Below, piece after piece: positions 4,067-45,945 of a DNA stretch of 64,000 nucleotides (its first letter is position 1; each line of letters begins with the position of its first letter). Source of the DNA: Steroidobacteraceae bacterium (GTDB lineage Bacteria > Pseudomonadota > Gammaproteobacteria > Steroidobacterales > Steroidobacteraceae); the NCBI GenBank assembly GCA_036262215.1, contig DATAJH010000106.1:3207-67206 (forward strand), given 5' to 3'. The notes under the pieces were generated by a model, which did no database searches, was not told the origin of the DNA, and worked only from the letters and a program-made list of their open reading frames with translations. A program made the translations under genes and the position numbers.

Positions 4067-4072
4067 TCAGGT

Positions 4073-4855
4073 TTACACGGCCAGACGAGCCCGGATCAGG
4101 ACGCTCACCAGCAGCATCGAAGCCGCGGCAGCGCGCATGCCGTCGACGGCGACCATACCGAGCGCCGCTCCGTTGGTGAACGGCGACTGACCGGCAGGCC
4201 ACGGCCGCAGCAGCAACCAGGCGACGACCATCAGTGACGGCAGCAGATAGGCGCCGATCCATGCCAGGCGCTCTGGCCGTGCAATGCGGCGTACCGGCGG
4301 CTCGAGCGGTGCCGGCGCATGGCGCAGCCATAGGATCAGCGCGGCGGCAACCACTGCCAGACCGATCAGGCTGCTGCCGTACTGCAACCAGCGATACAGG
4401 TGCAATGGATGACCGGACATTTCCGGGCCATAGTCCGTCAACAGCGGAAACATACGCACGCCGCGGGCATCTTCGTGCGTGAATGCATCCCAGATCAGAT
4501 GCGTACCTGCGCCCAGCAGCAGCGCTACGGCCGCGTACAGCCAGGCACCGGGTTGCCTGATCGACGCCGGCGGCGGCGCTGCGCGCAGCCGCACATAAGC
4601 CCGTTCCGGCACCACTTCGATCACCGCGGGTCTGATCAGCAGCAGCGTAAGCCAATAGATCGCCAGCCCTACCGGCAGGCAGAACGTCACCAAAGCCTCA
4701 AGACTGTGGCTCTGCCAGCGCGAAACGGATCCGGGCGCCAGCATGCCAAAATCCGGCACCATGCTGCCGATGACGGCCGCCGAAAATACGTTGGCGCGGG
4801 TAAATAGCCGGTAGCCCGGCAACACTGCGGCGATGTGCGATACGGTGAACGGCAT
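4073..4855 (-). CDS. DUF4184-family membrane protein
   Basis: 260 aa. MPFTVSHIAAVLP... start, several TM segments, and a GTHLIWDAFTHED His-rich motif typical of DUF4184. Confidence 0.65.
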   Translation of the reverse strand: MPFTVSHIAAVLPGYRLFTRANVFSAAVIGSMVPDFGMLAPGSVSRWQSHSLEALVTFCLPVGLAIYWLTLLLIRPAVIEVVPERAYVRLRAAPPPASIRQPGAWLYAAVALLLGAGTHLIWDAFTHEDARGVRMFPLLTDYGPEMSGHPLHLYRWLQYGSSLIGLAVVAAALILWLRHAPAPLEPPVRRIARPERLAWIGAYLLPSLMVVAWLLLRPWPAGQSPFTNGAALGMVAVDGMRAAAASMLLVSVLIRARLAV

Positions 4856-4861
4856 CGCGCC

Positions 4862-5446
4862 TTAACCACTCCAATCGCGCACGAACGCGGCCCGCTCAGG
4901 AGTGCGCGGCGGCGAGCTGTCCTGCACGGGTATCGAGCCCACATAGACGAAACCCAGGCAACGCTCCTGCGCATCGAACGCAAGCGCTGCGGCAACCTCG
5001 GGATCGTAGGCGTTGCCTCCGGTCAGCCATATCGCGCCATAGCCCTGGGCGTGGAATGCGTTCAGCAGGTTCATGACCGCGGCGCCGGTCGCCAGCAGCT
5101 GTTCCACTTCGGGCACCTTATGGTCCTGGCGCAGGCGCGCTCCCACGGCGAGTACCAGCGGCGCGCTCAGCGGCATGTCTCGGGCCTTGTCGAGCTTTCC
5201 CGGCGGTGTGGCCGGTTCGCGCTGCTGCAGGCGCCGTACAAACAGCTCCGACAGGCGCGCGCGCGCGGCGCCGCGAATCAGCACCAGTCGCAACGGCTTC
5301 AGGGCGCCATGATCCGGGGCGCGTAACGCGGCATCGATTGCGATATCGATCTGCGCCTGCGACGGTCCGGGCTCGCGCAACTGCAGTGCCGGCACCGAAC
5401 GACGCGACAGCAACATCTCGATGCTGTTGGACGCCTCACGCAGCAT
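4862..5446 (-). CDS. nitroreductase-family protein (YdjA-like)
   Basis: 194 aa. ...IEMLLSRRSVPALQLREPGPSQAQIDIAIDAALRAPDHGALKPLRLVLI... matches the nitroreductase fold pattern. The start overlaps the manB stop by 11 nt; an alternative ATG lies at 5416. Confidence 0.85.
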   Translation of the reverse strand: MLREASNSIEMLLSRRSVPALQLREPGPSQAQIDIAIDAALRAPDHGALKPLRLVLIRGAARARLSELFVRRLQQREPATPPGKLDKARDMPLSAPLVLAVGARLRQDHKVPEVEQLLATGAAVMNLLNAFHAQGYGAIWLTGGNAYDPEVAAALAFDAQERCLGFVYVGSIPVQDSSPPRTPERAAFVRDWSG

Positions 5447-8358: not shown

Positions 8359-9741
8359 TTACAGACGCTCCATGGTCAGGTCGGCGACACGTGGCTCGGC
8401 GTGCGGCACTCGGCCGCGACCGATCGCAAAATATTCGAAGCCCAGGCGCTGCATCAGCGCCGGGTCATATAGATTTCTGCCATCGAAGATCAGCGGCCGG
8501 ACCAGCAGGGATTTGAGCCGGTCATAATCCGGACTGCGAAACTCCTTCCATTCGGTTGCAATCAACAGCGCCTCCGCACCCTGCGCAGCCTCGTAAGCAT
8601 CCTTGCAGAATATCAGACTGTCCGCATGCTGGGCGTTCGCGTACAGCCGCCGCGCCTCGCGGCTCGCCACCGGATCATAGGCGCGCACGCTGGCGCCTGC
8701 GGCCAGCAGCGCATCGATGACGATCCGGCTCGGCGCCTCACGCATGTCATCGGTATTGGGCTTGAAGGCCAGGCCCCACAGCGCAAATGTGCGCCCACCG
8801 AGGCGGTCCTTGAAATGCGATCGCAGCTTTTGCACCAGCAGTGTTTTCTGCCGCTCATTCACGCTTTCAACGGCGCGCAGCAACGTGGCATCGTGACCGA
8901 CGTGATGCGCCGAGCGGATCAGCGCCTTGACGTCTTTGGGAAAGCACGAGCCGCCGTAACCGATCCCGGGATAAATGAAACTGTAGCCGATGCGCGGATC
9001 CGAACCGATGCCGATGCGCACCTTCTCTATGTCGGCACCGACGCGCTCGGCCACCGCGGCCAACTCGTTCATGAAACTGATCTTGGTGGCGAGCATGGCG
9101 TTGGCGGCGTACTTGGTGAGTTCGGCGGAGCGTATGTCCATGACCACCAGCCGATCGTGGTTGCGCGTAAACGGCTCGTACAGCGCGCGGATCAGCTCGG
9201 TGGTGCGCGGATTGTCAGTGCCGACCACGATCCGATCCGGCCGCATGAAGTCATCGATCGCGGCTCCTTCCTTGAGGAATTCCGGGTTTGATACCACATC
9301 GAATTCGATCGCCAGCCCGCGCGCAGCCAGCCCCGCCTGCACTTGCAGGCGCACCTGATCGGCGGTGCCGACCGGAACGGTGGATTTGGTGACCAGGATG
9401 GCATAGCGCGGCAGGTGCGCGCCGATAGCCTGCGCTACTTTCAGCACATGACTTAAGTCGGCGGAGCCGTCCTCATCGGCGGGCGTACCGACGCAGATGA
9501 GCTGAAACAGTCCATGCTCCACCCCGCGCGCAGTGTCGGCGGTGAATTCGAGACGGCCGGCGTCGCGATTGCGGTGCATCAATGCGTCCAGCCCCGGCTC
9601 GTGAATGGGCACCTCGCCGCTATTGAGGCGCTCGACCCGGGCGGCATCGATATCCACACACACCACGTGGTTACCGGCCTCTGCCAGGCAGGCACCGGAG
9701 ACCAGCCCTACGTAGCCGGAGCCAAAGATGGTGACTTTCAT
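8359..9741 (-). CDS. ugd: UDP-glucose 6-dehydrogenase
   Basis: 460 aa. [32 protein letters not shown] Rossmann N-terminus. Catalytic [11 protein letters not shown] motif. Confidence 0.95.
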
Positions 9742-9901
9742 TAGTAACGGCTTGAAATAACAGCAAATCGGAGCCTAGCGGAAGCGCGCGGACAAGGCAA
9801 AGCGCAGCCCCCTGACGCGGCGTTCATAACCGGTTTGTTACCAGCTTGGAACCGACCCGGATACCTTAAACTTCATACGATGCATGCTTGCGGGAGCATG
9901 C

Positions 9902-11770
9902 ATGTCGATCAACTTCGAGCAGATTACCAAGCATTACAACGCTGCGCCGGTCGTCAACGACGTTTCATTGCAGATCGAGGCCGGCGAGTTCTTCGTGCTG
10001 CTGGGCCCCAGCGGCAGCGGCAAGAGTACCTTGCTGCGCATCGCGGCCGGGCTGACCGATGTCGATCACGGTCGCATCTCCTTTCATGGCCGCGACGTAA
10101 CCAACATCCGCGCCCGCGAGCGCGGCGTAGGCCTGGTATTCCAGCACTACGCGCTGTTTCGTCATATGACGGTCGGCCAGAATGTCGAATTCGCACTGCG
10201 GGTGCGCGGTGTGCGGCGTCGCGATCGAGCGCGCCGGCGCGACGAACTGCTGCAGCTGGTCGCGCTCGAAGGCTATGCCAGCCGCCTGCCGGGACAGCTG
10301 TCCGGCGGCCAGCAACAGCGCGTAGCGGTCGCCCGGGCGCTGGCGCACGAGCCGCAGGTGCTGCTGCTGGATGAGCCGTTCGGCGCGCTCGACGCCAAGA
10401 TCCGGGTGGAACTGCGCGAGACCATTCGACAGGTGCAGCGTCGCCTGGGCATGACCACGATCCTGGTCACGCACGACCAGGAAGAGGCATTCGCGCTGGC
10501 CGATCGCATCGGCATCATGAACAATGGCCGGCTGCTCGAGACCGGGCGCGCGGAGACGCTGTATCGCCGTCCGGCCACGCGCTTCGTCGCCACCTTCCTC
10601 GGCGCCGCTAACCTGTTTCTGGGCGAGCGCGGCTCGGAAGGCCTGCGCCTGGGCAACCGTTTCCTGGCCGTGGGCGACAGCCTGAAGGCGGCCGGCATGG
10701 GCAATGAAGTGGTCACGATCGTACGCCCCGAGGACGTCGAGGTCGCCGAGGATGAAGATCGGCTGCGCAGCAGCGCGTTGAGCCTCGGGCACGTGCTGTC
10801 GGTGGATTTCGGCGGTGTATTCGAACGCCTGCGGGTACAGCTGCCGCGCGAATCCGGGGTCATATCGGCGGTCGGCCGTGAGCATCCGGCACACGCGGCC
10901 GATGGCAGCCACACGGCGCCGCAGGTGGTGATCGATGTGACACGCACCAATGGCGAACAGGCGCAGCTACCGCTGACGCCGGGCAAACGCGTCGCACTCG
11001 CCATCCGCCGCTTCCACGTACTGCCGACACCGATCTCAAGCTTCCGCATTCTGACCAGCGACGCCTCGACCGCGGCAGCGCTGCGTCAGGCGCCGCTGCT
11101 GCGCCAGCTGGTCCAGAGCATGCAGGCCCCGGTGCTGGAGGCGCAGGACAAGGGCGAGCGCGATGGCACGCAAACCGGCGTGGCAGTAATTGCCGGCGGC
11201 GGCGAACATGCGATCGACGAAATCGTCGCCGCAGCCTCACAGGGAAGGCGACAGATGTTGTGCATCCCGCCGCACCTGGCGCTGCCGCGGCGCATGCTGA
11301 TTCAGTGCAACAGCGATGCTGCGCGCTCGGCCACCCTGGGCCTGGTCGCCAGCGTCATGCGCCATCTGCACGCCGAGGCAACCTTTGTCAGCGTACAGAG
11401 CCCGACCGCGCCTCGATCGGAAGTCACCAGCTCGTTCCGCCGTCTGCTCGACGCGCGTGCCGAGCTGCAGGAAACCCACGGCCTGGATATCCGCACCGAC
11501 GTGCAGATCGGCGACCTCAACGGCTGGGTGGCGCATCTGGCCGCGTCGTCCGAGCCGGTACTGGTGGTGCTCGGCCTCGACGGTTCACCGCACGAGCTCG
11601 AGCAGACACTGCGCAGCGATTTCCAGCCGCTGTTCAACGCCGGCGGCAGCTGTGCCGTGCTGCTGTCCTGCACCGGACAGCCACGGGTGGATGCCGAGAG
11701 CCGCTCCAGCGGCATCGACTCGCTGTTCGACAGCAAGGCGTTCGATTTACTGCAGGAATCGCCCAGTTGA
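9902..11770 (+). CDS. cysA: sulfate/thiosulfate ABC importer ATPase CysA fused to a ~250-aa USP-like C-terminal extension
   Basis: Walker [10 protein letters not shown], signature [15 protein letters not shown], Walker B LLLDEPF, then a TOBE-like segment. The last ~250 codons resemble tandem universal-stress-protein folds (e.g. ...[38 protein letters not shown]). ATG at 9902 (MSINFEQ) is preferred over the track start at 9884 because GGGAG lies just upstream. Confidence 0.85.
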
Positions 11771-34590: not shown

Positions 34591-36747
34591 ATGATAGCCG
34601 GAAGACACCAGCCACACAGCATGGAAACCGCAACTCCCGCACCGCCCGAGATCGCCGCGCAGCTCGATGCTGCGCGCGCGTCGCTGGCCGAGTCAGGCGC
34701 CGACCAGACGGCGCTCGAGGCAGGGGTCGAGGCCGCCCGGACCGTGGCGGCCCTGACGCACGATGCCGATCTGGCGCTGGGCACGATGCTGCATCGGCTG
34801 CGCCAGGCCGGCCTGTCGCGCGAGGACCCGCAGATCGACGTGCGCCTTGGGGCCGCCTGCATACGGGTGGCGGTCGAGCTCGAGCGGCTCGGTGAGCTGC
34901 ATCTGCCTGCCGGCTGGACCGCGGACCAGGGCCTGAACGCACAGCAGGCCGAGATCCTGCGCAAGATGCTGCTGGCGGTGGCCGCGGATCCGCGCCTGGT
35001 GGTGGCGCATCTGGCCGGGCAGCTGGTACAGCTGCGCGGCGCGCGTGAACTGTCGGCACCCAGGCGGCAGCGGCTGGCGCTGGAGACGCGCGAGATACTG
35101 GCGCCGCTGGCCAATCGCCTGGGGGTCTGGAGTCTGAAGTGGGAACTCGAGGACCTGTCGTTCCGTTACCTCGAGCCCGAGGCCTACCACCGCATCGCGC
35201 GCGCCCTGGCAGAGCGGCGCGTGGATCGCGAACGCTACATAGGTGAGGTGTGTGCGCTGCTGCAGCGTGAACTGCGCCAAGCCGGCGTAGTCGCGGCCGC
35301 GGTGTATGGGCGGCCCAAGCATATCTACAGCATCTGGCGAAAAATGCAGCGCAAACAGCTCGCTTTCGAACAGCTGTTCGACGTGCGCGCGGTGCGCATT
35401 GTGGTGGCATCGATCGAGGACTGCTACGCTGCCTTAGGGTTGGTGCACGCACTGTGGCGCTACATCCCCGGCGAGTTCGACGATTACATCGCCACTCCGA
35501 AGGATAACGAGTACCGCTCGATTCACACCGCGGTGATCGGTCCGGAGGACAAATCGCTCGAGGTGCAGATTCGATCGCGCGACATGGACCAGTACGCCGA
35601 GCTCGGCGTCGCGGCGCATTGGCGCTACAAGGAAGGCGGTGCGCGCGACCTCGGCTACGAGCGCAAGATCGAATGGGTACGACGCGTGCTCGATCCGGCG
35701 CATGCCGCACAGTTCGAAGGCGACCTGATCGAGCGCGTCAAGGACGAACTGTTCGCCGATCGCATCTATGCGATGACGCCGCGCGGCGAGGTGGTCGATC
35801 TGCCGCGCGGCGCCACGCCGCTGGATTTCGCCTACCAGGTGCACACCGGCCTGGGCCATCGCTGTCGCGGCGCCAAGATCGCCGGCCGCATCGTGCCGCT
35901 TAACCAGCCGCTGGCCAACGGCGACGTGGTCGAGATCATCACCGGCAAACAGGCCGCGCCGAGCCGCGACTGGTTGTCGCCGGAACCTGGATTTCTGGTA
36001 TCGCCCAAGAGCCGCGCCAAGGTCAGGGCCTGGTTTCGGCGCATCGATGAGTCGCAGCATCGTGCGCTCGGACGCGAGACCCTGGAGCGCGAACTCGCCC
36101 GGGTCGGTGGCGGACCGGAGCTGATCGCAGCCCTGGTGCGCGAGCTGCACGCCGACAGCGCCGAAGACCTGCAGCGCCGCATCGGTGAGGGTGACATTGG
36201 CACCGCGGCGCTCAGCCAGGCGCTGACACGACTGCGCGCGCCCGCGGTAGCGCCGCTGGCGCCGACGCGCAAGCGTACGGGTCGCGCCCCGGCGGCCCGC
36301 TCGCCGGTGGAAATCGAGGGTGTGGGCGATCTGCCGACCACGATCGCGCGCTGCTGCGGGCCGGTGCCACCCGAACCCATCGCCGGCTACGTCACGCTCG
36401 GACGCGGCGTCACCATCCATCGTGAGGGCTGTCCGAATCTGCTGCGCATGCAATCGCTCAACGCAAGAAGGGTGCTGCGTGTCGAGTGGAACCTCGAGTC
36501 CGACAGCCTGCTGCCGGTCAGGATCCGCGTCGAGGCGCTCGACCGCCACGGCCTGCTGCGCGATGTGTCGGACGTGATGGCACTGGAGCGATTGAGCATA
36601 GAAGGAGTCAACTCCGACACCGACCCCAACGATCGAATTGCCACCATCGTGATGCGCACCGCGGTGCGCGACAGCGAGCAGCTGGGGCGCGTACTGCAGC
36701 GGCTGAGCGCAGTACCAAACGTACTGCGCGCGCTGCGCCTTGCCTGA
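34591..36747 (+). CDS. relA: GTP pyrophosphokinase, (p)ppGpp synthetase I (RelA)
   Basis: 718 aa. Synthetase core ...GRPKHIYSIWRKMQRK...FDVRAVRIVV...DNEYRSIHTAV...EVQIRSRDMDQYAELGVAAHWRYKEG, then TGS and ACT domains. The N-terminal pseudo-hydrolase lacks an obvious HD motif. Alternative ATG at 34621. Confidence 0.93.
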   Translation: MIAGRHQPHSMETATPAPPEIAAQLDAARASLAESGADQTALEAGVEAARTVAALTHDADLALGTMLHRLRQAGLSREDPQIDVRLGAACIRVAVELERLGELHLPAGWTADQGLNAQQAEILRKMLLAVAADPRLVVAHLAGQLVQLRGARELSAPRRQRLALETREILAPLANRLGVWSLKWELEDLSFRYLEPEAYHRIARALAERRVDRERYIGEVCALLQRELRQAGVVAAAVYGRPKHIYSIWRKMQRKQLAFEQLFDVRAVRIVVASIEDCYAALGLVHALWRYIPGEFDDYIATPKDNEYRSIHTAVIGPEDKSLEVQIRSRDMDQYAELGVAAHWRYKEGGARDLGYERKIEWVRRVLDPAHAAQFEGDLIERVKDELFADRIYAMTPRGEVVDLPRGATPLDFAYQVHTGLGHRCRGAKIAGRIVPLNQPLANGDVVEIITGKQAAPSRDWLSPEPGFLVSPKSRAKVRAWFRRIDESQHRALGRETLERELARVGGGPELIAALVRELHADSAEDLQRRIGEGDIGTAALSQALTRLRAPAVAPLAPTRKRTGRAPAARSPVEIEGVGDLPTTIARCCGPVPPEPIAGYVTLGRGVTIHREGCPNLLRMQSLNARRVLRVEWNLESDSLLPVRIRVEALDRHGLLRDVSDVMALERLSIEGVNSDTDPNDRIATIVMRTAVRDSEQLGRVLQRLSAVPNVLRALRLA

Positions 36748-36767: not shown

Positions 36768-39700
36768 TCAGGAGCTGCGCTTGGAGCGACGTTTGCGACT
36801 TGCGGCCGCCGCGACCGCAGTTCGCGCGACGGAAACTGCCGCTTCAGGGCCGGCCAGCGGTGCCGGTGCAGCCAGCATCAGCTCGACCTGCTCGATCGGG
36901 ATCGGTCGCGAGTACAGGTAACCCTGCATCTGGCCGCAGCGCAACTCGCGCAGCTTGTCGAGCTGCTCGGTGGTCTCGACCCCTTCGGCCACCGTCACCA
37001 GCCCGAACGCCGCCGCCAGCCCGATGATGCTCGTGGTCAGCGCTACGCTGGCCAGGTCGAGCGGTAGTCCGCTGATGAAGGAACGATCGATCTTCAGCAT
37101 ATCCAGCGGCAATCGCGCCAGCAGTCCGAGAAATGAATACCCGGTACCGAAGTCGTCGAGCGCCACACGGATGCCGGCCTCTCGCAGCATCTGCAGCTTG
37201 CGGCTCGTGGTATCGATGTCCTGCAACAGGCTGGACTCGGTGATCTCGATGTCCATGCCATAGCCGGCGCCGTTCAAGCCCTCGGCCGCAGCCAGCACCT
37301 CTTCGACGAAGGCACGTTGACGAACCTGCAACGCGGCGACATTGACCGCGACACGCACCGGCCCCAGGCCCAGCGCCCGCCAGCGCCGGCAGTCCTGCGC
37401 TGCACGCGCCAGCACCCAGCTGCCCACTGGAACGATCAATCCGGATGACTCGAGGATCGGCAGGAATTGGCCGGGCATCGCCGGGCCGCCTTCCGGGTCG
37501 TTCCAGCGTATCAGTGCCTCCAGCGAATGGATGCGTCCGGTGGCGATATCCAGTTGCGGTTGATAGTGTAGAAAGAATTGTTCCTCATCCAGGGCGGTTC
37601 GAAGCTTGTGCTCAAGGTGCATGCGTCCGGCTATCTCGCCGTGCATCTGCAGTTTGTAGGTCAGGAATTGCTCACCGCTGTCCTTCGCCCGTTTCAGCGC
37701 CGCTTCGGCCTTGTGCACCAGCGTGTCGGCACTTTCCCCGTCGTTCGGATAACGCGCAATGCCCACCGGGCAATTGACCCGGATCGCGTGGCCTTCGATC
37801 TCGAACGGCTTGCCGAACACTGCGCTGCCGAGCATCGCCGCGATGTTCTCCGCCGATGCGCTCGGGCCCGGTTCCACCATGACAAACGTGCCGCCTCCAA
37901 GATAGCCGACCCGTTCCTCGCTCTCGGTATTGCGCTTGAGCCGCTCGGCGACCTGCCGCAACAGCAGGTCCCCCACACGACGACCAAAGCTGTCGTTGAT
38001 GTTGGCCAGACCGTGAATATCGAACGCGGCAACCGTCAGCACCTTCTGCGGTTCGGGCCGGTCTCGCAGCGCCGCGTCGAGGCGCTCGTAGAACAGCGCC
38101 CGCTTGGCCAGCCCCGCCAGCGAGTCGAACGACGCCAGATACTCGGCAACGCCCGCGCTCTCCTCGTGCTCGAGCGCCAGTGCCAGCGTCGCGCGGATGT
38201 CCTGCAGCAGCAGTATCTCCTCATCACGGACCAGGTTGAGGGTGCGCGATGCCAGCATCAGCGCGCCGCGCCGCCAGCTGCCCAGAACCAGCGGTATCAC
38301 CACCAGTGACTTGTAGCCAAGTCCGGCCAGAACTTCGTGCGTAGTGGCAGTCGGAGTGGTGTGGGACAGGTCGTTGCATACCGTGAGTTCGCCGGTGCGA
38401 AGCGCCCGGCTGGTGAAGCTCGCATCCGGCTCATCGCCATCGCTGAGCTGCAGCGGTTGATTCTCCGGACCGTCCACCTCCGAACCCGAAGTGAACAGTG
38501 GTCGTGCAATCCGTCCGTCCCAGTCGACGATCCAGAGCGTGGCGTACTCGTAGCCGCCAATCTCGGTAGCGACACGGCAAGCTTCCCGAAGCAGATCATC
38601 GCGGTCGCGAATGCGCAAAACGGCTGCATTGATGCTGCTTTGCATGCGCACCACGCGGGTAAAATGCGCCGTCTGCTCTTCAAACTGCCTGCGCTCGGTG
38701 ATATCCCGCGCCAGTGCGATCAGATACCCGCGATGCCCGTACTCGACGTAACTGGTGCTGAATTCAACCGGGAACACCCGCCCGTCCTTGCAGCGATAGA
38801 CGCCTTCCCGCAACAGCGGTCCCGAACTCTGTGCGGCATGCACGCGTTCCGGCCAGGGCTGATCGGGGCCGCCGGATGAGATTTCGGCGGCGCTCAGCTG
38901 CAACAATTCGTCGCGCGTGTAACCGAGTCGCTGCGACGCGGTTTCATTCACGTCGACCAGGCGGCCGCTCGACACCTCGGCGATGTAGATCAGGTCACGG
39001 GTTTTGTCGAACAGGTGCCAGAACAGCTGCAGCTTGCCTTCTGCACGCTCGCTTTCTGCGCGTGCGCGCAGCGCCGAGATACCATAGGTCAGATTGTCAC
39101 CCAGTTCCATCAGCAGCTTCACCTGATCCGCTTCGAAGGCGGCGCCGCGGTCCGCATAGATGGTGAGGGCGCCGAGCGTGCCCGAGTCGATGATGAGCGG
39201 CACGGCGATCGATGCGACGTAGTGGCCGGCGAGCGCTTCGCCGCACCATGGCGCGATCGCCGGGTCCTGGTCCAGGTTCGCGCAGATACTCGGACTGCCG
39301 TCGCGGATCGCGCGCGCGGTAGGACCGTCGCCTGCGGATGCAGCATCCCAGCTCAGCCTCACCTGCTGCAGGTACCCGGCATCCAACCCCGCGCAAGCCA
39401 TGATGCGCACCGACTTCGCCGCGTCATGCTCCGCGAATCCGACCCAGGCCAGAGGATAGCCCCCGATTTCGACAATCACCCTGCAGATGCTGGCCAGCAG
39501 CGCCGCCTCATCCGATGCGCGAATGAGTTCGTGATTGCAGTCACTCAACATCAGCAGGTTACGATTCGACTGGCCCAGAGCGCCTTCCATGCTCTTACGA
39601 GCTGAAACGTCGACGCCGCTGCCCACGACCGCGACCACGCGGCCGGCGGCGTTGCGCAGCGGACTGAAGACGCAGTCCACGGCAACCAATTGCTCGCCCT

Positions 39701-40439
39701 TCATGCGCACTACCAGCTCCTGGCGCACCGGGTTGCCTTTCAATGCCGACTCCAGCACGGCACGAATCTGTTGCTGGGCGTCCTTGGAGTATGACCACCA
39801 GTAGGTATCCCATACCTGCCGTCGAATGACGTCGGCGATCCGCAACCCGGCGGCGTCGAGCGCCGCCTGATTGACTTCGAGCACGACCCCATCGCGTGAC
39901 ACGACGCCGACGAAGGCGGCAATACCGTCGAAGATTTCGCGCCACTGTGCCGAGGTGGGAACACCGAGCTCGGCCAGCGGACTGCCATCGGTGGCGCCGG
40001 CAGAGATCGGCACCGCGCCAACTTCGCATAACGCCATCACCTTGCCCGCCGCGTTCTTGATCGGGCAGACGGCCAGGTGCAGCGCGACTTCGGAACCATC
40101 GCGCGTCAGACGCAGGGTATTGACGGAGGCTACCTGCGCGCTCTCCAGCAGGCGTCGCATCAGCGCCCGATGCTCGGAACGCAACTGAACAGGAATGATT
40201 TGTGCCATCGGCCGGCCGGCCAGATCCGGCGTGGAGTAGCCGAGCAGATCGGCGGCGGCCGCATTGCAATCAGTGACGATGCCATCGACGTCATACACCA
40301 CAACAATGTCCGCGCCGATCGTCAAACACACCTCTCGATTGCGCCGCACGTCTCGCGGCGGGAGACGATGCAATTGCGTGGCTGATTCGCCGTGCAGAGC
40401 ACATGCCATCGCACATGCGACGCTCAGCACAATCAACAA
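36768..40439 (-). CDS. PAS-PAS-GAF-PAS-GAF-GGDEF(degenerate)-EAL signalling protein (predicted c-di-GMP phosphodiesterase)
   Basis: 1223 aa. The GGDEF position reads GGGTF (37884-37898). EAL-domain motifs are intact: EALIRW (37512-37520), EITES, DDFGTGYS, KIDRSF, EGVET, QGY. Confidence 0.93.
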   Translation of the reverse strand: MLIVLSVACAMACALHGESATQLHRLPPRDVRRNREVCLTIGADIVVVYDVDGIVTDCNAAAADLLGYSTPDLAGRPMAQIIPVQLRSEHRALMRRLLESAQVASVNTLRLTRDGSEVALHLAVCPIKNAAGKVMALCEVGAVPISAGATDGSPLAELGVPTSAQWREIFDGIAAFVGVVSRDGVVLEVNQAALDAAGLRIADVIRRQVWDTYWWSYSKDAQQQIRAVLESALKGNPVRQELVVRMKGEQLVAVDCVFSPLRNAAGRVVAVVGSGVDVSARKSMEGALGQSNRNLLMLSDCNHELIRASDEAALLASICRVIVEIGGYPLAWVGFAEHDAAKSVRIMACAGLDAGYLQQVRLSWDAASAGDGPTARAIRDGSPSICANLDQDPAIAPWCGEALAGHYVASIAVPLIIDSGTLGALTIYADRGAAFEADQVKLLMELGDNLTYGISALRARAESERAEGKLQLFWHLFDKTRDLIYIAEVSSGRLVDVNETASQRLGYTRDELLQLSAAEISSGGPDQPWPERVHAAQSSGPLLREGVYRCKDGRVFPVEFSTSYVEYGHRGYLIALARDITERRQFEEQTAHFTRVVRMQSSINAAVLRIRDRDDLLREACRVATEIGGYEYATLWIVDWDGRIARPLFTSGSEVDGPENQPLQLSDGDEPDASFTSRALRTGELTVCNDLSHTTPTATTHEVLAGLGYKSLVVIPLVLGSWRRGALMLASRTLNLVRDEEILLLQDIRATLALALEHEESAGVAEYLASFDSLAGLAKRALFYERLDAALRDRPEPQKVLTVAAFDIHGLANINDSFGRRVGDLLLRQVAERLKRNTESEERVGYLGGGTFVMVEPGPSASAENIAAMLGSAVFGKPFEIEGHAIRVNCPVGIARYPNDGESADTLVHKAEAALKRAKDSGEQFLTYKLQMHGEIAGRMHLEHKLRTALDEEQFFLHYQPQLDIATGRIHSLEALIRWNDPEGGPAMPGQFLPILESSGLIVPVGSWVLARAAQDCRRWRALGLGPVRVAVNVAALQVRQRAFVEEVLAAAEGLNGAGYGMDIEITESSLLQDIDTTSRKLQMLREAGIRVALDDFGTGYSFLGLLARLPLDMLKIDRSFISGLPLDLASVALTTSIIGLAAAFGLVTVAEGVETTEQLDKLRELRCGQMQGYLYSRPIPIEQVELMLAAPAPLAGPEAAVSVARTAVAAAASRKRRSKRSS

Positions 40440-40484
40440 ATTATACTTTCTCCATCACACCATGGCGCACGATCAAAAGTTTGT

Positions 40485-40506
40485 CACCTGTCATCTTTTA
40501 CAGGTG
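40485..40506. promoter_or_regulatory. 7-bp perfect inverted repeat CACCTGT-N8-ACAGGTG in the AT-richer divergent promoter region
   Basis: Read directly at 40485-40491 / 40500-40506, between the PAS/GAF-EAL gene (-) and the kaiC-like operon (+). Function is unknown; candidate operator only. Confidence 0.25.
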
Positions 40507-40637
40507 CGGCATGCATCACGAGCGCGCATCCTTTGTATTCTTTTCAACCGCGCCGGCGCATGCGCCGCGGAGAATGCCATTGTAGATTAGGCGTATCATC
40601 CGCTGTGCCGCGTGCGCGGGTTGCCTGCGGATGGCCG

Positions 40638-41063
40638 ATGCAAAGTGAAGCACGACGTATTCAAGCCACGATTGCTGATCTGGCAGCGATCAATGCAGAT
40701 GCCGAGCGCATCGCTGAAGTGGCTGCGTCGACCTGGCGCGAAATTCACGCGGCGTTGTCTCCAGTCATCGGCCCGGGCGGCGTCGCCGCGCTTTACCAAC
40801 GAAGTCTGTACGTGACACGTGCCGCCCATCCCTGTCTGGCTGCGGTGCGTGACGACACTCTGCGCCCTGGCGAATTTGCCGCCCTGCAACTGGTGCTGTC
40901 ACAGCAGAGCAGTGCGCAAGTGGCGGCCGCAAATGGCGCCCTGCTGCAGACCTTCTGCGATCTGCTGGGTAACCTGATCGGTGTACCGCTGAGCGAGCGG
41001 CTGCTTCGATCGGTCCGCGACCTGCCTTCGAGCGGAACTGCCGTGCCGGACGACCCGAAATGA
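40638..41063 (+). CDS. hypothetical 141-aa protein, translationally coupled to the KaiC-like gene
   Basis: ATG at 40638 (MQSEARRIQATIADLAAINADAERIAEV...). The stop overlaps the kaiC-like ATG (ATGA at 41060-41063). Predicted helical with no signal peptide. It does not look like KaiB or KaiA by eye. The start is uncertain. Confidence 0.5.
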   Translation: MQSEARRIQATIADLAAINADAERIAEVAASTWREIHAALSPVIGPGGVAALYQRSLYVTRAAHPCLAAVRDDTLRPGEFAALQLVLSQQSSAQVAAANGALLQTFCDLLGNLIGVPLSERLLRSVRDLPSSGTAVPDDPK

Positions 41064-42547
41064 GTGCCAGCAAGGCAACCATCCGTCGTCTTTGCACCGG
41101 TGTACCGGGGCTGGACGAGGTGCTCGGCGGCGGCTTACCGGAGTTCTCGTTCAATGTCATTGCCGGGGCGCCCGGTAGCGGCAAGACGACGCTGGCACAT
41201 CAGATCATGTTCACGTTAGCGACCCGGGAACGCCCGGCGCTGTATTTCACGGTACTCGGCGAGCCGCCGCTGAAGATGCTGCGCTACCAGCAGCAATTCG
41301 ACTTCTTCGACAGCGAACAGGTAAATGCCGCGATCCGATTCATCAATCTCGCCGACGATACGGCCAGTGGCGATCTCGATCGGGTGCTGAGCCGGATCGT
41401 CGCCGAGGTTGAAGCGCACGGACCAGCCGCGGTGTTCGTCGACTCTTTCCGCTCAGTGATGCTCGCAAGCCAGGGCGACGGCAGGTCCTTCTTGGGCCTG
41501 CAGCAGTTAATCCAGCAATTGGGCATGCTGATGACCGGCTGGCAGGCCACCACGTTCCTGATCGGGGAATACATGAGCGAGATCGATCCGAATCCGGTAT
41601 TCACCGTTGCCGACGGGCTTATCTGGCTGCGGCAGAGCCTGCACCGCAATTCAGTCGTGCGAAAAATGGAGATTATAAAGATGCGTGGGCAGCGGACCTT
41701 GCCCGGGCTTCATACCTTTCGCATCAGCACTGCGGGAATTCAGGTGTTTGCGCCCGCACCAGCTGCCGCACCGACCGAATCGCCGGCGCCGGCGCGCACG
41801 GATGCGAGGTTGCGCATGGGGGTGCCGGAACTCGACCGGATGATGTATGGCGGACTGCCGCGCGGATACTCGCTGTTGGTCGCCGGGCCGTCGGGATCGG
41901 GTAAGAGCATCCTGGCTGCGGCGTTCCTGATTGAAGGTGCGCGCAGCGGAGAGACCGCCGTCATTGCCGCCTTCGAGCAGCGATCCAACGCGGCGCGCGG
42001 ACCCGCCCTGGCCGAGTTGATCGGCAGCGACCGGATTGGCGTGGTCGACACCCGGGCGCCGGATCTGTCGGTCGAGGAGATCACCAGGCTGCTGCTCACC
42101 GAGATTCACCGCCTCAAGGCGAGCCGCGTCGTGATCGATTCCCTATCGGGCTTCGAGCTCGCCCTGGCGCCGGCGTTCCGCGACGATTTTCGCGAGTCGT
42201 TGTCGCGCCTGGTGTCGTCGCTCACCGCCGCCGGCGCCTCGGTGCTGATGACTTCCGAGCTGGAAGACCGGTACACCGATCTGCGCTTCAGCCCCTATGG
42301 AGCGGCCTTTATGACCGACGCGATCATCGTGCAGCGCTACATAGAGGTAGACAGCCGATTGGAGCGCATATTAGCGGTGGTGAAGCTACGAGCCAGCGAG
42401 CATTCAAACGAGCTGCGCCTGTTCCACATCGATGGTGATGGCATCAAGATCGGCGCGATGGTCGCCGGACGTGAAGGACTGCTGGGCGGACAACCGAGCC
42501 GGGAGCAGAGAAAGGGCGCCTCCGCCATGCGTGCCGACGATGACTGA
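41060..42547 (+). CDS. KaiC-like double RecA-domain ATPase
   Basis: 495 aa. Domain 1: GVPGLDEVLGGGLPEFSFNVIAGAPGSGKTTLAHQ. Domain 2: [35 protein letters not shown]-terminal ...KLRASEHSNELRLFHIDGDGIKIG matches the KaiC ...KMRGSxHxxxxRxF pattern. Confidence 0.9.
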   Translation: MSASKATIRRLCTGVPGLDEVLGGGLPEFSFNVIAGAPGSGKTTLAHQIMFTLATRERPALYFTVLGEPPLKMLRYQQQFDFFDSEQVNAAIRFINLADDTASGDLDRVLSRIVAEVEAHGPAAVFVDSFRSVMLASQGDGRSFLGLQQLIQQLGMLMTGWQATTFLIGEYMSEIDPNPVFTVADGLIWLRQSLHRNSVVRKMEIIKMRGQRTLPGLHTFRISTAGIQVFAPAPAAAPTESPAPARTDARLRMGVPELDRMMYGGLPRGYSLLVAGPSGSGKSILAAAFLIEGARSGETAVIAAFEQRSNAARGPALAELIGSDRIGVVDTRAPDLSVEEITRLLLTEIHRLKASRVVIDSLSGFELALAPAFRDDFRESLSRLVSSLTAAGASVLMTSELEDRYTDLRFSPYGAAFMTDAIIVQRYIEVDSRLERILAVVKLRASEHSNELRLFHIDGDGIKIGAMVAGREGLLGGQPSREQRKGASAMRADDD

Positions 42548-42571
42548 ACTTTCCGTCGAGAGCCCATCCGA

Positions 42572-44209
42572 GTGAACGAGCGTCCCGACACCGGCGACGT
42601 CACCGCGGCAGCACGGGCAGTGGCGCTGCTCAACAAACAGGCGGACGAGATTCGCGCGGACATCGTCCGCTCACGGCTCGAGCTGGAGCAATTGCAACGC
42701 GAGTCCGGCGACACCTGGGCCGCCCAACTGGTGCAGGCCAATGAGCAACTGGTGCTGGCAGCACTCCAGGCCGAAACCATTGCCGAGACAGCCACCGGCC
42801 ACCTGGATGAACTGGCGCGCGCCAGCCAGCGCGACGCGCTAACGGACACGCCCAACCGTGCGCTGATGCTCGACCGGCTGGAGAACGCCATTGCCCTGGC
42901 ACGGCGGCACGTAACTCGGTTAGCCGTGCTGTTTCTCGACCTCGATCAGTTCAAGCACATCAACGACACGATGGGCCATGCGGTCGGGGATGAGGTGCTG
43001 CAACTGGTAGCTCGCCGTCTGGAATCAGTGGTGCGTGCCTCGGACACCGTCAGCCGTCACGGCGGCGACGAATTTTTGGTGCTGATAGGGGAGGTGTCGA
43101 AGGCATCAGACGCCGCCGTGATCGCCGCAAAGATTCTCGCCGTGCTCACGGCACCATGCCGGGTCGGCGATCACATGCTGCGGCTATCGGCCAGTCTCGG
43201 CATCGCCACCTACCCGGATGACGGCGAGGACGCGGCCAGTCTCATCAGCCGGGCCGACGCCGCGATGTACCGCTCCAAGCGGCGCCGACGTGGCGGGTTT
43301 GAGTTTCACCGCGAGCAGATTCCGGGGGTGCCGGCGCTGGGGCAATCCAGCAGCGACGCACCGCAGCTACCGACCGCCCGCTACGATTCCGCGCTGTCCG
43401 AGCAGCAGCCGCGACTTCGCGAACTGCGAGAGGCCAATGAGCAGCTGGTGATCGCGGCACTGACGGCGCAGCAGATGGAGGCGCAAGCCGAGCTCGCGTA
43501 TTCGCGCCAGACGAAGTTCCTGGCGATGGTGGCGCATGAACTGCGCAATCCGCTGATCCCGATACAAACCGCTGCCGGGCTGCTCAACCGCGCGCTCACG
43601 GACGAGCCGCTGCTGGCGCAGCTACAGGCGGCAATCAAGCGCCAGGTCTCGCTGGTGTCACGACTGGTGGACGATCTGCTCGACGGATCGCGGGTCAGTT
43701 CCGGCAAATTCAGGCTGGAATGCAGTGTGGTGGAGATGGCCGGCATCCTCAGCCTCGCGGTCGAGACCTGCCGGCCTGCGGTTGAGGCGCGCTCGCAGAG
43801 TCTGACCATTCATCTGGCACCCGCGCCGCTGCTCGTGATTGGCGATCCTCTGCGGCTGGGCCAGATCTTCAGCAATCTGCTGGACAACGCGTCGAAATAT
43901 ACCGCCAAGGGCGGGGAGGTCTCGCTCATGGCGGTGGTGCTCGATCGTACGTTGCAGGTTACCGTATCCGATAATGGCATCGGCATTATGTCCGAAGCGC
44001 TGCCCAACATCTTCGAGTTGTTCATGCAGGACGCGCGCGCCGTTGCCCACTACAACGGCGGACTAGGAATTGGACTCGCAGTAGTGCGCGACCTGGTTGA
44101 GGCGCATGGCGGCACCGTGACCGCCAGGAGCCCGGGCCGCGACCTCGGCAGCGACTTCATCGTCACGCTACCGATGAGCGCCAGGCCGATTGCAGCCATC
44201 ACCAGATGA
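42572..44209 (+). CDS. cytoplasmic hybrid diguanylate cyclase (GGDEF) / histidine kinase (HisKA-HATPase_c), no sensor or receiver domain
   Basis: GTG start. A coiled-coil precedes the GGDEF domain, which has I-site RASD and active-site GGDEF (…RASDTVSRHGGDEFLVL…). A second coiled-coil precedes H-box MVAHELRNPL, N-box NLLDNASKYT, and G-boxes DNGIGI / GGLGIGLAVV. Confidence 0.9.
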   Translation: MNERPDTGDVTAAARAVALLNKQADEIRADIVRSRLELEQLQRESGDTWAAQLVQANEQLVLAALQAETIAETATGHLDELARASQRDALTDTPNRALMLDRLENAIALARRHVTRLAVLFLDLDQFKHINDTMGHAVGDEVLQLVARRLESVVRASDTVSRHGGDEFLVLIGEVSKASDAAVIAAKILAVLTAPCRVGDHMLRLSASLGIATYPDDGEDAASLISRADAAMYRSKRRRRGGFEFHREQIPGVPALGQSSSDAPQLPTARYDSALSEQQPRLRELREANEQLVIAALTAQQMEAQAELAYSRQTKFLAMVAHELRNPLIPIQTAAGLLNRALTDEPLLAQLQAAIKRQVSLVSRLVDDLLDGSRVSSGKFRLECSVVEMAGILSLAVETCRPAVEARSQSLTIHLAPAPLLVIGDPLRLGQIFSNLLDNASKYTAKGGEVSLMAVVLDRTLQVTVSDNGIGIMSEALPNIFELFMQDARAVAHYNGGLGIGLAVVRDLVEAHGGTVTARSPGRDLGSDFIVTLPMSARPIAAITR

Positions 44210-44252
44210 ATCGGTGTACCATCGCGAGCTGCTGGGTGCGCCAGATAAGGCC

Positions 44253-44690
44253 ATGAAAAAACCGCTGCCGATCATGCGAGTGGTGTCGTTCTATCACAAG
44301 GTGACCGGTCTGTTTCATGCCCGGCATCTGATGTCGTCCGATGCCAAAGCGATTGTGCTGAATACCCCTCACGATCACATTGCGCTCGATGGCGATCATT
44401 TCGATCGGCTGTCGCAACGCATGGACATCAAGACCGGCAAAGTGATCGACCAGGTACCGGCGCAACCCAGCGACGATCACGAGTGGAACGCGACCGATCG
44501 GCGCTGGCAACTAAAGCCGGAAGTCGTTGCCAAGGAGGAAACGCGCCGCCACGCCATCCTCCGGATCAGTCAGCTCGAGCAGTCGGGTATTCGCTCGCTG
44601 CGCGAGTTGGCGTTGGGCGAGGCCAAGGCGGCCGATCGGCTCAAGGCGCTCGATATTGAAATCGCCGCGCTGCGCAAATCGCTCATTTAG
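44253..44690 (+). CDS. hypothetical 145-aa protein (visibly lower GC than its neighbours)
   Basis: ATG at 44253 preceded by TAAGG. MKKPLPIMRVVSFYHKVTGLFHARHLMSSD...WNATDRRWQLKPEVVAKEE...LKALDIEIAALRKSLI. Non-shadow composition with a C-terminal amphipathic helix. No family assignable by eye. Confidence 0.55.
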   Translation: MKKPLPIMRVVSFYHKVTGLFHARHLMSSDAKAIVLNTPHDHIALDGDHFDRLSQRMDIKTGKVIDQVPAQPSDDHEWNATDRRWQLKPEVVAKEETRRHAILRISQLEQSGIRSLRELALGEAKAADRLKALDIEIAALRKSLI

Positions 44691-44702: not shown

Positions 44703-44730
44703 GGCTGCCGGCATGCGGTTGTCGGCAGCC
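44703..44730 (+). terminator. GC-rich stem-loop downstream of the kaiC-like operon (possible terminator, no U-tract)
   Basis: GGCTGCCG (44703-44710) pairs with CGGCAGCC (44723-44730), with a 12-nt loop. Confidence 0.3.
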
Positions 44731-45066
44731 ATCATGACGACCTACACAAAGAACGGGCCTTCACTTGGCCGACGCGTGCTGTAGGATTGATCCATCGGCA
44801 GCTGGCGCAATTCACCGCAGCGGCGTCGAGCCGCCGGCTCCGGCATCCGGTAGCGCACAGCGCGGCCAGCTCCATGGGAGGATTGCATATGCAGCAACGC
44901 CGATTTGGAAACGGGGAAACCGACCTCCTGGCACCGGGACTCGGCCGGGCGCTGCGCTCGCGGCGCCCGGCCGCTGGCGGGCGTTACTCAGCCGCGGGCA
45001 TGGCCTCTGTCAGTCGCTGAGCGTCCATCCGTCGAGCCCAAGACCAGCCCGCAGCGGCCGGCGCGC

Positions 45067-45945
45067 GTGGACCCCGGCGTCTGTGGCAATTGCGATGCCC
45101 GGTTGACGGGCCCCTATTGCGCACAGTGCGGGCAGCATGCGCGCGACAGCGCGCGCTCCCTGGGCGCGGTGCTGCGTGACGGCTGGCATTTGTTTGTCCA
45201 CGTCGACGGCCGCTTCTGGTACACATTGTGGACCCTGCTTGCACGGCCAGGGCAGCTCACGGTCGACTATTTTGCCGATCGCCGCGCGCGCTATGTGTCC
45301 CCGGTGCGGCTGTACTTCGTGATCAGCCTCGCGTTCTTCGCGCTCACGGCGGCGAACTCGAACCTGATGTCGAAATCCGCGACGCCTGCGCCGGCTGCCG
45401 CGGCTAGCAGCGGCACCTCGGCCAACGTCCCCGCCGACGCCAGCGATTGCGACAACATCCAGCTGCGCCTGCCGTGGCTGCAGGCGCGGCTGCGCGCCGC
45501 CTGCAGGCGTCAGGTCGCCGATAGTGGCAAATCGGCGGCACGCGCATTCGGTTCCTACATCCCGAAAATGATGTTCCTGTTTCTGCCGCTGGTGGCGCTG
45601 ACGATGGTGCCGCTGTACCGGAGCACGCGGCACTATTACGTCGAGCACGTGGTGTTCTTTCTGCACATCCAGGCCGCGCTGTTCCTGGTGATGATCGCCG
45701 ACCTGTTGCTCAGCATAGCCACGCATGGGCTGGCGCCGCTCCGCGGCGTTGCCTCCATTGGCGACTTCAGCGCGGCCGCTGCAGCCGGATATGCGATCTG
45801 GTGTACCTACCGGGCGATGCGCCGCTACTACGGTGAGCGTCGCGCCCCGACGCTGGTCAAGCTGGCCGTCGTTGGCATTGCCTACCAGATCTTTCTGGTC
45901 ATCATGGTAGCGGCGACGCTGTTGCTGAGTGCGCTGACAGCCTGA
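45067..45945 (+). CDS. DUF3667-family zinc-ribbon membrane protein
   Basis: ...CGNCDARLTGPYCAQCGQHARDS...GRFWYTLWTLLARPGQLTVDYFADRRARYVSPVRLYFVISLAFF.... The start is uncertain: GTG at 45067, just before the zinc ribbon, is preferred over the track start at 44905. Confidence 0.7.
   Translation: MDPGVCGNCDARLTGPYCAQCGQHARDSARSLGAVLRDGWHLFVHVDGRFWYTLWTLLARPGQLTVDYFADRRARYVSPVRLYFVISLAFFALTAANSNLMSKSATPAPAAAASSGTSANVPADASDCDNIQLRLPWLQARLRAACRRQVADSGKSAARAFGSYIPKMMFLFLPLVALTMVPLYRSTRHYYVEHVVFFLHIQAALFLVMIADLLLSIATHGLAPLRGVASIGDFSAAAAAGYAIWCTYRAMRRYYGERRAPTLVKLAVVGIAYQIFLVIMVAATLLLSALTA

Follow-up and report, generated by a model that had tools for sequence, protein, structure and literature searches.

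KaiC-like ATPases that are encoded beside a histidine kinase, without KaiA or KaiB, have been described in two earlier studies. De Luca et al. 2011 (PMC3164672) sorted the proteobacterial kaiC genes by their genomic context and recognised one class in which kaiC is accompanied by a kinase gene without kaiB, as well as a heterogeneous class with poorly conserved phosphorylation sites, including 'AF', whose members lie near histidine kinases or GGDEF/EAL proteins; the Ramlibacter genes Rta_04330/04340 were presented as a KaiC-like/kinase pair. Terrettaz et al. 2022 (bioRxiv 10.1101/2022.01.26.477890) reported that the KaiC-like genes of Pseudomonas virtually always adjoin a kinase gene, as in the systems of P. 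putida (PP_3834/3835) and P. protegens, and that the KaiC-like proteins of groups I and III bind the neighbouring kinases in two-hybrid assays, the P. putida pair being also co-immunoprecipitated. Their group II, which is uncharacterised experimentally, lacks phosphorylatable residues at positions 431/432, carries two conserved threonines nearby, has its nearest relatives in the Xanthomonadales and has the kinase as its sole partner. The present analysis concerns a locus of this kind, comprising four open reading frames (ORFs) at positions 40638-44690 of a 64-kb stretch of a Steroidobacteraceae genome (assembly GCA_036262215.1, contig DATAJH010000106.1; the whole stretch is hereafter referred to as the window). 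Three of its genes, encoding a small protein (ORF1), a KaiC-like ATPase and a kinase with an inserted cyclase domain, constitute the conserved unit, and we consider it somewhat probable that their products form a three-component cytoplasmic module, in which the state of an ATPase ring is read by a sensor-less kinase with the ORF1 protein as a regulator.

The locus shares with the pairs of both studies a double-domain ATPase without KaiA or KaiB, encoded directly upstream of a co-directional kinase gene in a conserved pairing. Unlike either account, it has a GGDEF domain inserted in the kinase and a gene for a protein of 141 amino acids (aa) before the ATPase gene. Groups I and III of Pseudomonas have SY/TY or SS phosphorylation sites, kinases with PAS- or KaiB-like N-termini and usually a single-domain response regulator, whereas the present ATPase carries Ala/Phe, the kinase begins with a helical module free of Pfam matches and contains two EANEQLV motifs, and no response regulator is encoded at the locus. 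The ATPase thus described agrees with the 'AF' type in De Luca et al. 2011, and group II of Terrettaz et al. 2022 is matched by description only; compared in this manner, the family has the A/F pair, T415, T419 (numbering of the window ATPase) and a kinase neighbour, the window protein itself having A415. The original prediction for this locus, made from the sequence alone, could name no characterised system of the same composition. This holds for the GGDEF insertion and ORF1, which are absent from both papers, and does not hold for the pairing of a KaiC-like protein and a histidine kinase without KaiA and KaiB, published in 2011 and 2022. Literature searches on KaiC in combination with cyclase, kinase or cyclic diguanylate (c-di-GMP) retrieved no paper describing this operon. 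The locus therefore adds to the known KaiC-like/kinase pairing and is not a categorically new system; neither its c-di-GMP output nor its small partner protein seems to have been described before.

All four ORFs lie on the forward strand and are closely spaced. ORF1 (40638-41063, +; 141 aa) has a stop codon that overlaps the start of the ATPase gene in an ATGA; the ATPase gene (ORF2; 41060-42547, +; 495 aa), whose ATG lies inside this overlap, is followed after a gap of 24 nucleotides (nt) by the cyclase-kinase gene (ORF3; 42572-44209, +; 545 aa; GTG start), and a gap of 43 nt separates the latter from ORF4 (44253-44690, +; 145 aa). The positions, the spacing, the ATGA overlap and the domains all proved to be as originally described when compared with the ORF list, the Pfam matches and the catalytic motifs. 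Comparison with relatives indicated purifying selection on all four ORFs, the ratio of non-synonymous to synonymous substitution rates (dN/dS) ranging from 0.07 to 0.33. Because of these ratios and the occurrence of same-length homologs of ORF1 in hundreds, all four, including the small ORF1 and ORF4 whose coding status the original prediction had singled out for checking, are regarded as genuine coding genes and not as chance ORFs. No KaiA, KaiB, SasA-like domain or receiver was found among the locus ORFs with Pfam and NCBIfam, in agreement with the absence of the Kai partners and of a response regulator claimed earlier, and tblastn with a KaiB query gave no match in the 64-kb window or in 96 related loci. 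Transmembrane-like segments are absent from all four proteins, and none of the proteins carries a sensor domain.

The conservation of the gene set was examined in 98 related loci gathered from genomes, metagenomes and plasmids, of which L001-L096 were scored for the window proteins; the loci were not de-duplicated and include 52 unique full-length ATPases. An ATPase gene, its product 69-88% identical to that of the window, starts at or just past the ORF1 stop in 90 of the 91 loci with at least 130 nt of downstream sequence. The ATPase gene is followed by a kinase gene in 45 of the 47 loci for which 3.4 kb or more of downstream sequence is available. Of these kinase genes, 28 include GGDEF, 16 lack it and one is split into two ORFs, the 16 kinase-only genes encoding HisKA-HATPase proteins directly after the ATPase gene. 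The flanking genes are wholly different among the lineages, and the triad is co-inherited in unrelated contexts in Gamma-, Beta- and Alphaproteobacteria, plasmids included. Co-conservation, which the original prediction had named beforehand as its own test, was thus found for the core triad only: ORF1, the ATPase and the kinase are conserved as proposed, and the four-gene unit as a whole is not, ORF4 being present in a single Steroidobacteraceae-like subclade. The core comprises three genes because ORF4 is limited to that subclade and the divergently transcribed phosphodiesterase gene (see below) to a part of it.

The hosts are mainly soil and peat metagenome-assembled genomes (MAGs) of Steroidobacteraceae, other Gammaproteobacteria and Burkholderiales; cultured hosts include Marilutibacter alkalisoli, with the genes on the chromosome (CP041242.1, region 3213214-3227633), and Caballeronia sp. 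SBC1 and SBC2, with the genes on plasmids (in SBC1, SBC1_RS38800, RS38805 and RS38810 of pSBC1_4). On a plasmid of Paracoccus liaowanqingii (L098), a remote ORF1 homolog is encoded ahead of a KaiC-like ATPase of 49% identity, a response regulator and a kinase of the HWE type. The constant part of the system is therefore the ORF1/ATPase pair and the variable one the kinase type, since the pair precedes an HWE kinase in Paracoccus. In the latter plasmid and in pSBC1_4 of Caballeronia sp. SBC1 (L097) the module lies beside IS21, IS110 and IS5 insertion elements. The plasmid and insertion-element location suggests horizontal spread, which fits the patchy distribution among the Alpha-, Beta- and Gammaproteobacteria.

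Two loci depart from the usual gene structure. In a betaproteobacterial MAG (L011) the cyclase (8932-9678; 248 aa) and the kinase (9632-11038) are encoded by separate, overlapping ORFs; the kinase carries a C-terminal receiver, and a convergent GGDEF-EAL gene is located downstream. This represents either a true split into a hybrid kinase or an assembly frameshift. In L001 (8423-9911) the ATPase matches are divided between two reading frames, with aa 1-187 in one and aa 186-485 in the other, and a product of 309 aa only was predicted by the gene caller; the contig is otherwise syntenic, and the break reflects either a frameshift or an error of assembly.

The ATPase consists of two KaiC domains (PF06745; Pfam E 7e-65). 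Its residues were mapped onto Synechococcus KaiC by HMMER alignments to PDB chains, and the corresponding columns were checked in the 52 unique relatives. The Walker A motifs of the first (CI; GAPGSGKT, aa 36-43, 41165-41188, +) and the second domain (CII; GPSGSGKS, aa 276-283, 41885-41908, +) are invariant in these relatives. The pair of catalytic glutamates of KaiC is incomplete in both domains: in CI, within 'TVLGEPP' (aa 64-70), E77/E78 are replaced by G67-E68, which is invariant, and in CII, within 'FEQ' (aa 305-307), E318 is kept as the invariant E306 and E319 is replaced by Q307 in 51 of the 52 relatives. The equivalents of the clock phosphorylation sites S431/T432 are A416/F417 (42305-42310, +), likewise invariant. 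Thus, one catalytic glutamate per domain is retained, without the KaiC phosphorylation sites. S411, the equivalent of KaiC T426, and T419 are invariant in the relatives, T419 being present in the window as well. Residue 415 (42302-42304), one of the two conserved threonines beside the lost phosphorylation sites, is Thr in 49 of the 52 relatives and Ala in the window copy.

These features of its sequence set the ATPase apart from a canonical clock KaiC. It scored well below the NCBIfam cut-offs for the KaiC equivalogs (NF006799 / TIGR02655), with 203 bits vs 408 and 124 bits vs 546, and it departs from canonical KaiC in this equivalog score, in S431/T432, in the glutamate pairs and in the lack of kaiA and kaiB partners at the locus, while the tandem domains and the Walker A motifs are shared. 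Its best PDB match is KaiC 8zn5 (E 3e-48). The ATPase shows 69-88% identity among the relatives, whereas the identity of ORF1 drops to ~40%; in a homolog search with the ATPase, the relatives among the matches listed were all close, with identities of 73-89%. The protein is presumed to be a hexamer.

The locus resembles cyanobacterial KaiABC with SasA/CikA-RpaA in having a two-ring ATPase of the KaiC fold, the state of which would likewise be read by a histidine kinase, and differs from it in lacking KaiA, KaiB, S431/T432, the full glutamate pairs and a thioredoxin-like kinase domain. The KaiBC hourglass systems (KaiC of Rhodobacter sphaeroides, 8dba/8fwi; Rhodopseudomonas palustris) are alike in that proteobacterial KaiC homologs act without KaiA. 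However, these systems keep a phosphorylatable Ser and an adjacent kaiB, and the present locus has neither KaiB nor the clock phosphorylation sites; the ATPase matches them less well, with an E-value of 1e-31, than cyanobacterial or reconstructed KaiC, with 3e-48.

ORF3 is a predicted cytoplasmic bifunctional diguanylate cyclase and histidine kinase. Its GGDEF domain (aa 86-240, 42827-43291, +; Pfam E 3e-48) scored 164 bits against a cut-off of 23.8 (PF00990), with both the inhibitory I-site (R155ASD) and the active site (G164GDEF) intact. The kinase core, composed of HisKA (aa 313-377) and HATPase_c (aa 424-536; Pfam; 43508-44179, + for the two together), retains all its motifs, namely H322ELRNP, LLDNASKY, DNGIG and GGLGIGL (boxes H, N, G1 and G2, respectively). 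Pfam and a segment check revealed neither a sensor or receiver domain nor any transmembrane segment in ORF3. The N-terminal module (aa 1-85, 42572-42826, +) has no match in Pfam or NCBIfam, where a SasA-type thioredoxin-like (KaiB-like) domain was also looked for and not found, and consists of a heptad-like helix; we propose that it constitutes the docking and input region.

A first EANEQLV-type motif (aa 53-68, 42728-42775, +) is found near the end of this module and a second (aa 285-300, LREANEQLVIAALTAQ, 43424-43471, +) in the helix running into HisKA, the GGDEF domain being inserted between the two copies. The versions with and without GGDEF have in common an N-terminal helical segment of ~45 residues and the first motif, 'EANEQLV(L)AAL.AQ'; the second, 'LREANEQLV.AAL.AQ.L', is kept in all the cyclase-kinases and kinase-only relatives inspected. 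GGDEF with the RxxD I-site is retained in 21 of 23 unique cyclase-kinases. A literature search with the EANEQL motif string gave nothing. In having a helix before an I-site GGDEF and a second helix before HisKA, the protein resembles bifunctional GGDEF/histidine kinases and cyclases controlled by coiled coils; it differs in having no sensor of its own and in that its GGDEF is inserted between motif copies, the kinase family including GGDEF-free members as well. Control by helix register is a general mechanism for GGDEF and HisKA domains located behind signalling helices.

ORF1 has no match in Pfam, NCBIfam, PHROGs or the PDB sequences, a profile search against the latter yielding chance matches only. 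The AlphaFold2 model, based on 26 homologs, is confident (predicted local distance difference test score 79.6; predicted template modelling score 0.76) and comprises seven helices followed by a disordered tail (residues 129-141); a Foldseek search of the PDB with this model gave a best E-value of 2.1, with no Kai protein among the matches listed. Since neither the PDB profile search nor the Foldseek search returned anything, ORF1 is not detectably KaiA- or KaiB-like, and its identification as KaiA or KaiB was rejected for want of any similarity to PDB sequences or folds. The family has hundreds of homologs of nearly equal length, all unannotated, and a profile search over 1.84 billion representative proteins placed it in at least 2,809 clusters (50% identity) at E<=1e-3 and in 1,510 at E<=1e-10. 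The dN/dS values of ORF1 are 0.17-0.33. A C-terminal motif, [QH][DE] within the last nine residues, often as A-[AV]-Q-D, follows a variable tail in 104 of 136 unique members; the C-terminus in the window reads AVPDDPK. The remote homolog in Paracoccus is a hypothetical protein of 138 aa (hhalign probability 96.5%, E 7e-10). We propose that ORF1 is a partner of the KaiC-like ATPase.

The observations that underlie the proposed mechanism are the gene order, the co-inheritance, the integrity of the motifs, the lack of a sensor domain and the lack of the clock phosphorylation sites. The natural reading would be that the sensor-less kinase takes its input from the KaiC-like ATPase, for which the kinase binding seen in other KaiC-like groups offers an experimental precedent. 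ORF1 would be made in a fixed ratio with the ATPase, because the two genes are translationally coupled, and would bind it as a regulator or adaptor. Instead of a phosphorylation cycle, the N-terminal helical module of the dimeric kinase may read the conformation that the ATPase ring adopts depending on its nucleotide, and the two EANEQLV helices could relay the state of the ring both to the paired GGDEF domains and to the kinase core formed by HisKA and HATPase. The former would synthesise c-di-GMP under feedback limitation by the I-site, and the latter would phosphorylate or dephosphorylate a response regulator that is unlinked. In this way an internal state, for which energy charge or the time spent under stress is the most plausible candidate, would be converted by the module into outputs of c-di-GMP and phosphotransfer, and in this lineage the divergent PAS/GAF phosphodiesterase may supply the opposing c-di-GMP activity. 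The earlier suggestion that the state of the ATPase is read out as c-di-GMP synthesis and/or phosphotransfer is retained for its KaiC-to-kinase logic and not for the centrality of c-di-GMP: as 16 of the 47 long loci have a kinase without GGDEF, phosphotransfer is regarded as the ancestral output and c-di-GMP as an addition to it.

Several findings weigh against such a module. The contacts between ORF1 and the ATPase and between the ATPase and the kinase are deduced from gene order alone, and the locus encodes no response regulator. The first ATPase domain holds just one of the two catalytic glutamates, and its ATPase activity may therefore be weak or absent. GGDEF is dispensable in a third of the relatives, and c-di-GMP is consequently not the core output. 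Two loci break the gene order: in L094, ORF1 (4911-5435) is directly followed by the cyclase-kinase without an ATPase, and in L034 no kinase was detected within 3.6 kb downstream of the ATPase (2952-4481).

Other explanations share much of the same evidence. The original prediction had allowed for an hourglass, and the ATPase could be envisaged as a phosphorylation hourglass operating on T415/T419/S411, its phospho-state gating the cyclase-kinase and ORF1 taking a KaiA- or KaiB-like role. E306, equivalent to the general base E318 of KaiC, is invariant, as are T419 and S411, and T415 is present in nearly all the relatives; in addition, KaiC-like proteins from other Pseudomonas groups acquire phosphorylation with culture age, and nearby threonines have been proposed by the same authors as possible sites in group II (bioRxiv 10.1101/2022.01.26.477890). 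Nevertheless, such an hourglass is unlikely, because A416/F417 at the S431/T432 positions are invariant and T415 is lost in the window, where the residue is Ala; moreover, ORF1 has no fold similarity to KaiA or KaiB, and De Luca et al. (PMC3164672) argued that a cyclic timer is probably beyond the capacity of homologs lacking a pair of phosphorylatable sites. Quite unlikely, in our estimate, is a different arrangement in which ORF1 is the true input, a helical sensor or anti-kinase binding the coiled coil of the kinase, while the ATPase acts as a chaperone or remodeller by which that complex is assembled or dissolved. RecA-fold hexamers often remodel partner proteins, the ORF1 tail motif is typical of a docking peptide, and the ATPase-less L094 places ORF1 directly before the cyclase-kinase. 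L094, however, is a lone exception that could result from an assembly deletion, ORF1 is translationally coupled to the ATPase and not to the kinase, and the ORF1/ATPase pair persists with an HWE kinase in Paracoccus.

The adjacency of the genes would be meaningless if a DNA-repair ATPase of the RadA/Sms type merely lay next to an independent orphan cyclase-kinase. NCBIfam matches to RadA, RadB and RecA, weak and below threshold, point in this direction, but the KaiC models are matched far more strongly, the protein has two domains, no DNA-binding or Lon-like domain was found with Pfam, and the gene order is kept on plasmids and in 45 of the 47 loci, three classes of Proteobacteria being represented, which makes this explanation highly improbable. 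The module of ATPase, sensor-less kinase and ORF1 regulator is the reading towards which we lean.

Upstream, the operon is divergent from a gene for a PAS/GAF phosphodiesterase (36768-40439, -; 1223 aa), as originally proposed and as supported by Pfam and a motif check. Its GGDEF is degenerate (GGGTF at aa 848) and its EAL intact (EALIR at 974, DDFGTG at 1095), and the protein is probably a phosphodiesterase only. Adjacency of this gene to the triad is confined to L001-5 and L008, and the GGDEF-EAL genes that occur near the triad in L011, L026 and L080 are unrelated to it. The intergenic region between the phosphodiesterase gene and ORF1 (40440-40637; 198 nt), with a lower guanine-plus-cytosine (GC) content of 0.57-0.60, presumably houses both divergent promoters. 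Scans for consensus sigma-70 promoters and for intrinsic terminators gave nothing above the shuffle expectation. A riboswitch or other RNA in the locus was considered and discarded, there being no Rfam match at E<=1.

A GC-rich hairpin (44703-44730, +) of 11 bp is located 12 nt past the ORF4 stop, with a folding energy of -28.1 kcal/mol (z -3.1) and without a T tract; the ORF3/ORF4 gap has no comparable structure. The hairpin is likely to mark the 3' end of the transcription unit, and its presence after ORF4, together with the lack of one between ORF3 and ORF4, fits a single transcription unit in this lineage. It may be a transcript end or an element resembling repetitive extragenic palindromes.

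ORF4, which has no Pfam or NCBIfam family, is a lineage-restricted accessory outside the conserved core. It is present only in L001-5, L008 and L009, which form the Steroidobacteraceae-like subclade, with 80-94% identity, and with dN/dS values of 0.07-0.22 it is better conserved than ORF1 among close relatives. Its GC content is indeed lower, as noted earlier, at 0.587 vs 0.63-0.65 in ORF1, the ATPase gene and ORF3. The sole indication of a phage-remnant origin is a weak match (E 0.0024) to the 'tail protein' family PHROG 2837, as tblastn against 50,697 phage records gave no match. The single-sequence AlphaFold2 model is poor, with a low-confidence, beta-rich N-terminal half and a long C-terminal helix.

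The locus is flanked by genes for a RelA/SpoT homolog (34591-36747; 718 aa) and a DUF3667 protein (44905-45945). These were considered as parts of the system and rejected, synteny being found in L001, L002 and L008 only; as they are syntenic in the closest relatives alone, both genes lie outside the module.

Regulators of the Crp/FNR type (cNMP_binding and HTH_Crp_2 domains) recur beside the triad in the related loci, often as two paralogs and at times in the same orientation, separated from it by -3 to 182 nt. Such regulators adjoin both GGDEF-containing and kinase-only triads, and none is present in the 64-kb window. Examples are found in L084 (4452-5213), L048 (9598-10317 and 10546-11322), L063 (6765-7565) and L018 (4761-5453), and also in L071, L037, L035/L038, L051, L014, L027, L028, L056 and L090. 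Some proteins of the Crp family bind c-di-GMP, and these regulators may represent a transcriptional output of the system.

The locus bears on the role of the many KaiC homologs of non-photosynthetic bacteria in that it defines a compact and very widespread module, the small partner alone being represented by at least 2,800 clusters at 50% identity. To the known pairing it adds a conserved third protein without detectable relatives of known structure and a direct c-di-GMP output in most members. Since its phosphorylation sites are lost and yet identity remains at 69-88%, the ATPase is a natural test case for KaiC-type signalling by ATPase state alone, and genetic and biochemical tests are immediately possible because cultured strains (Marilutibacter alkalisoli, Caballeronia sp. 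SBC1/SBC2 and Paracoccus liaowanqingii) carry the triad. As a tentative extension, which we regard as possible though doubtful, the ORF1 family may be the hitherto unrecognised obligate partner of a large KaiC-like clade devoid of phosphorylation sites, a counterpart of KaiA/KaiB with an unrelated fold, the two jointly constituting a phosphorylation-independent ATPase timer or energy switch that is wired to c-di-GMP in ~60% of the sampled loci. If true, KaiC-type timekeeping would be tied to the choice between sessile and motile life in soil Proteobacteria.

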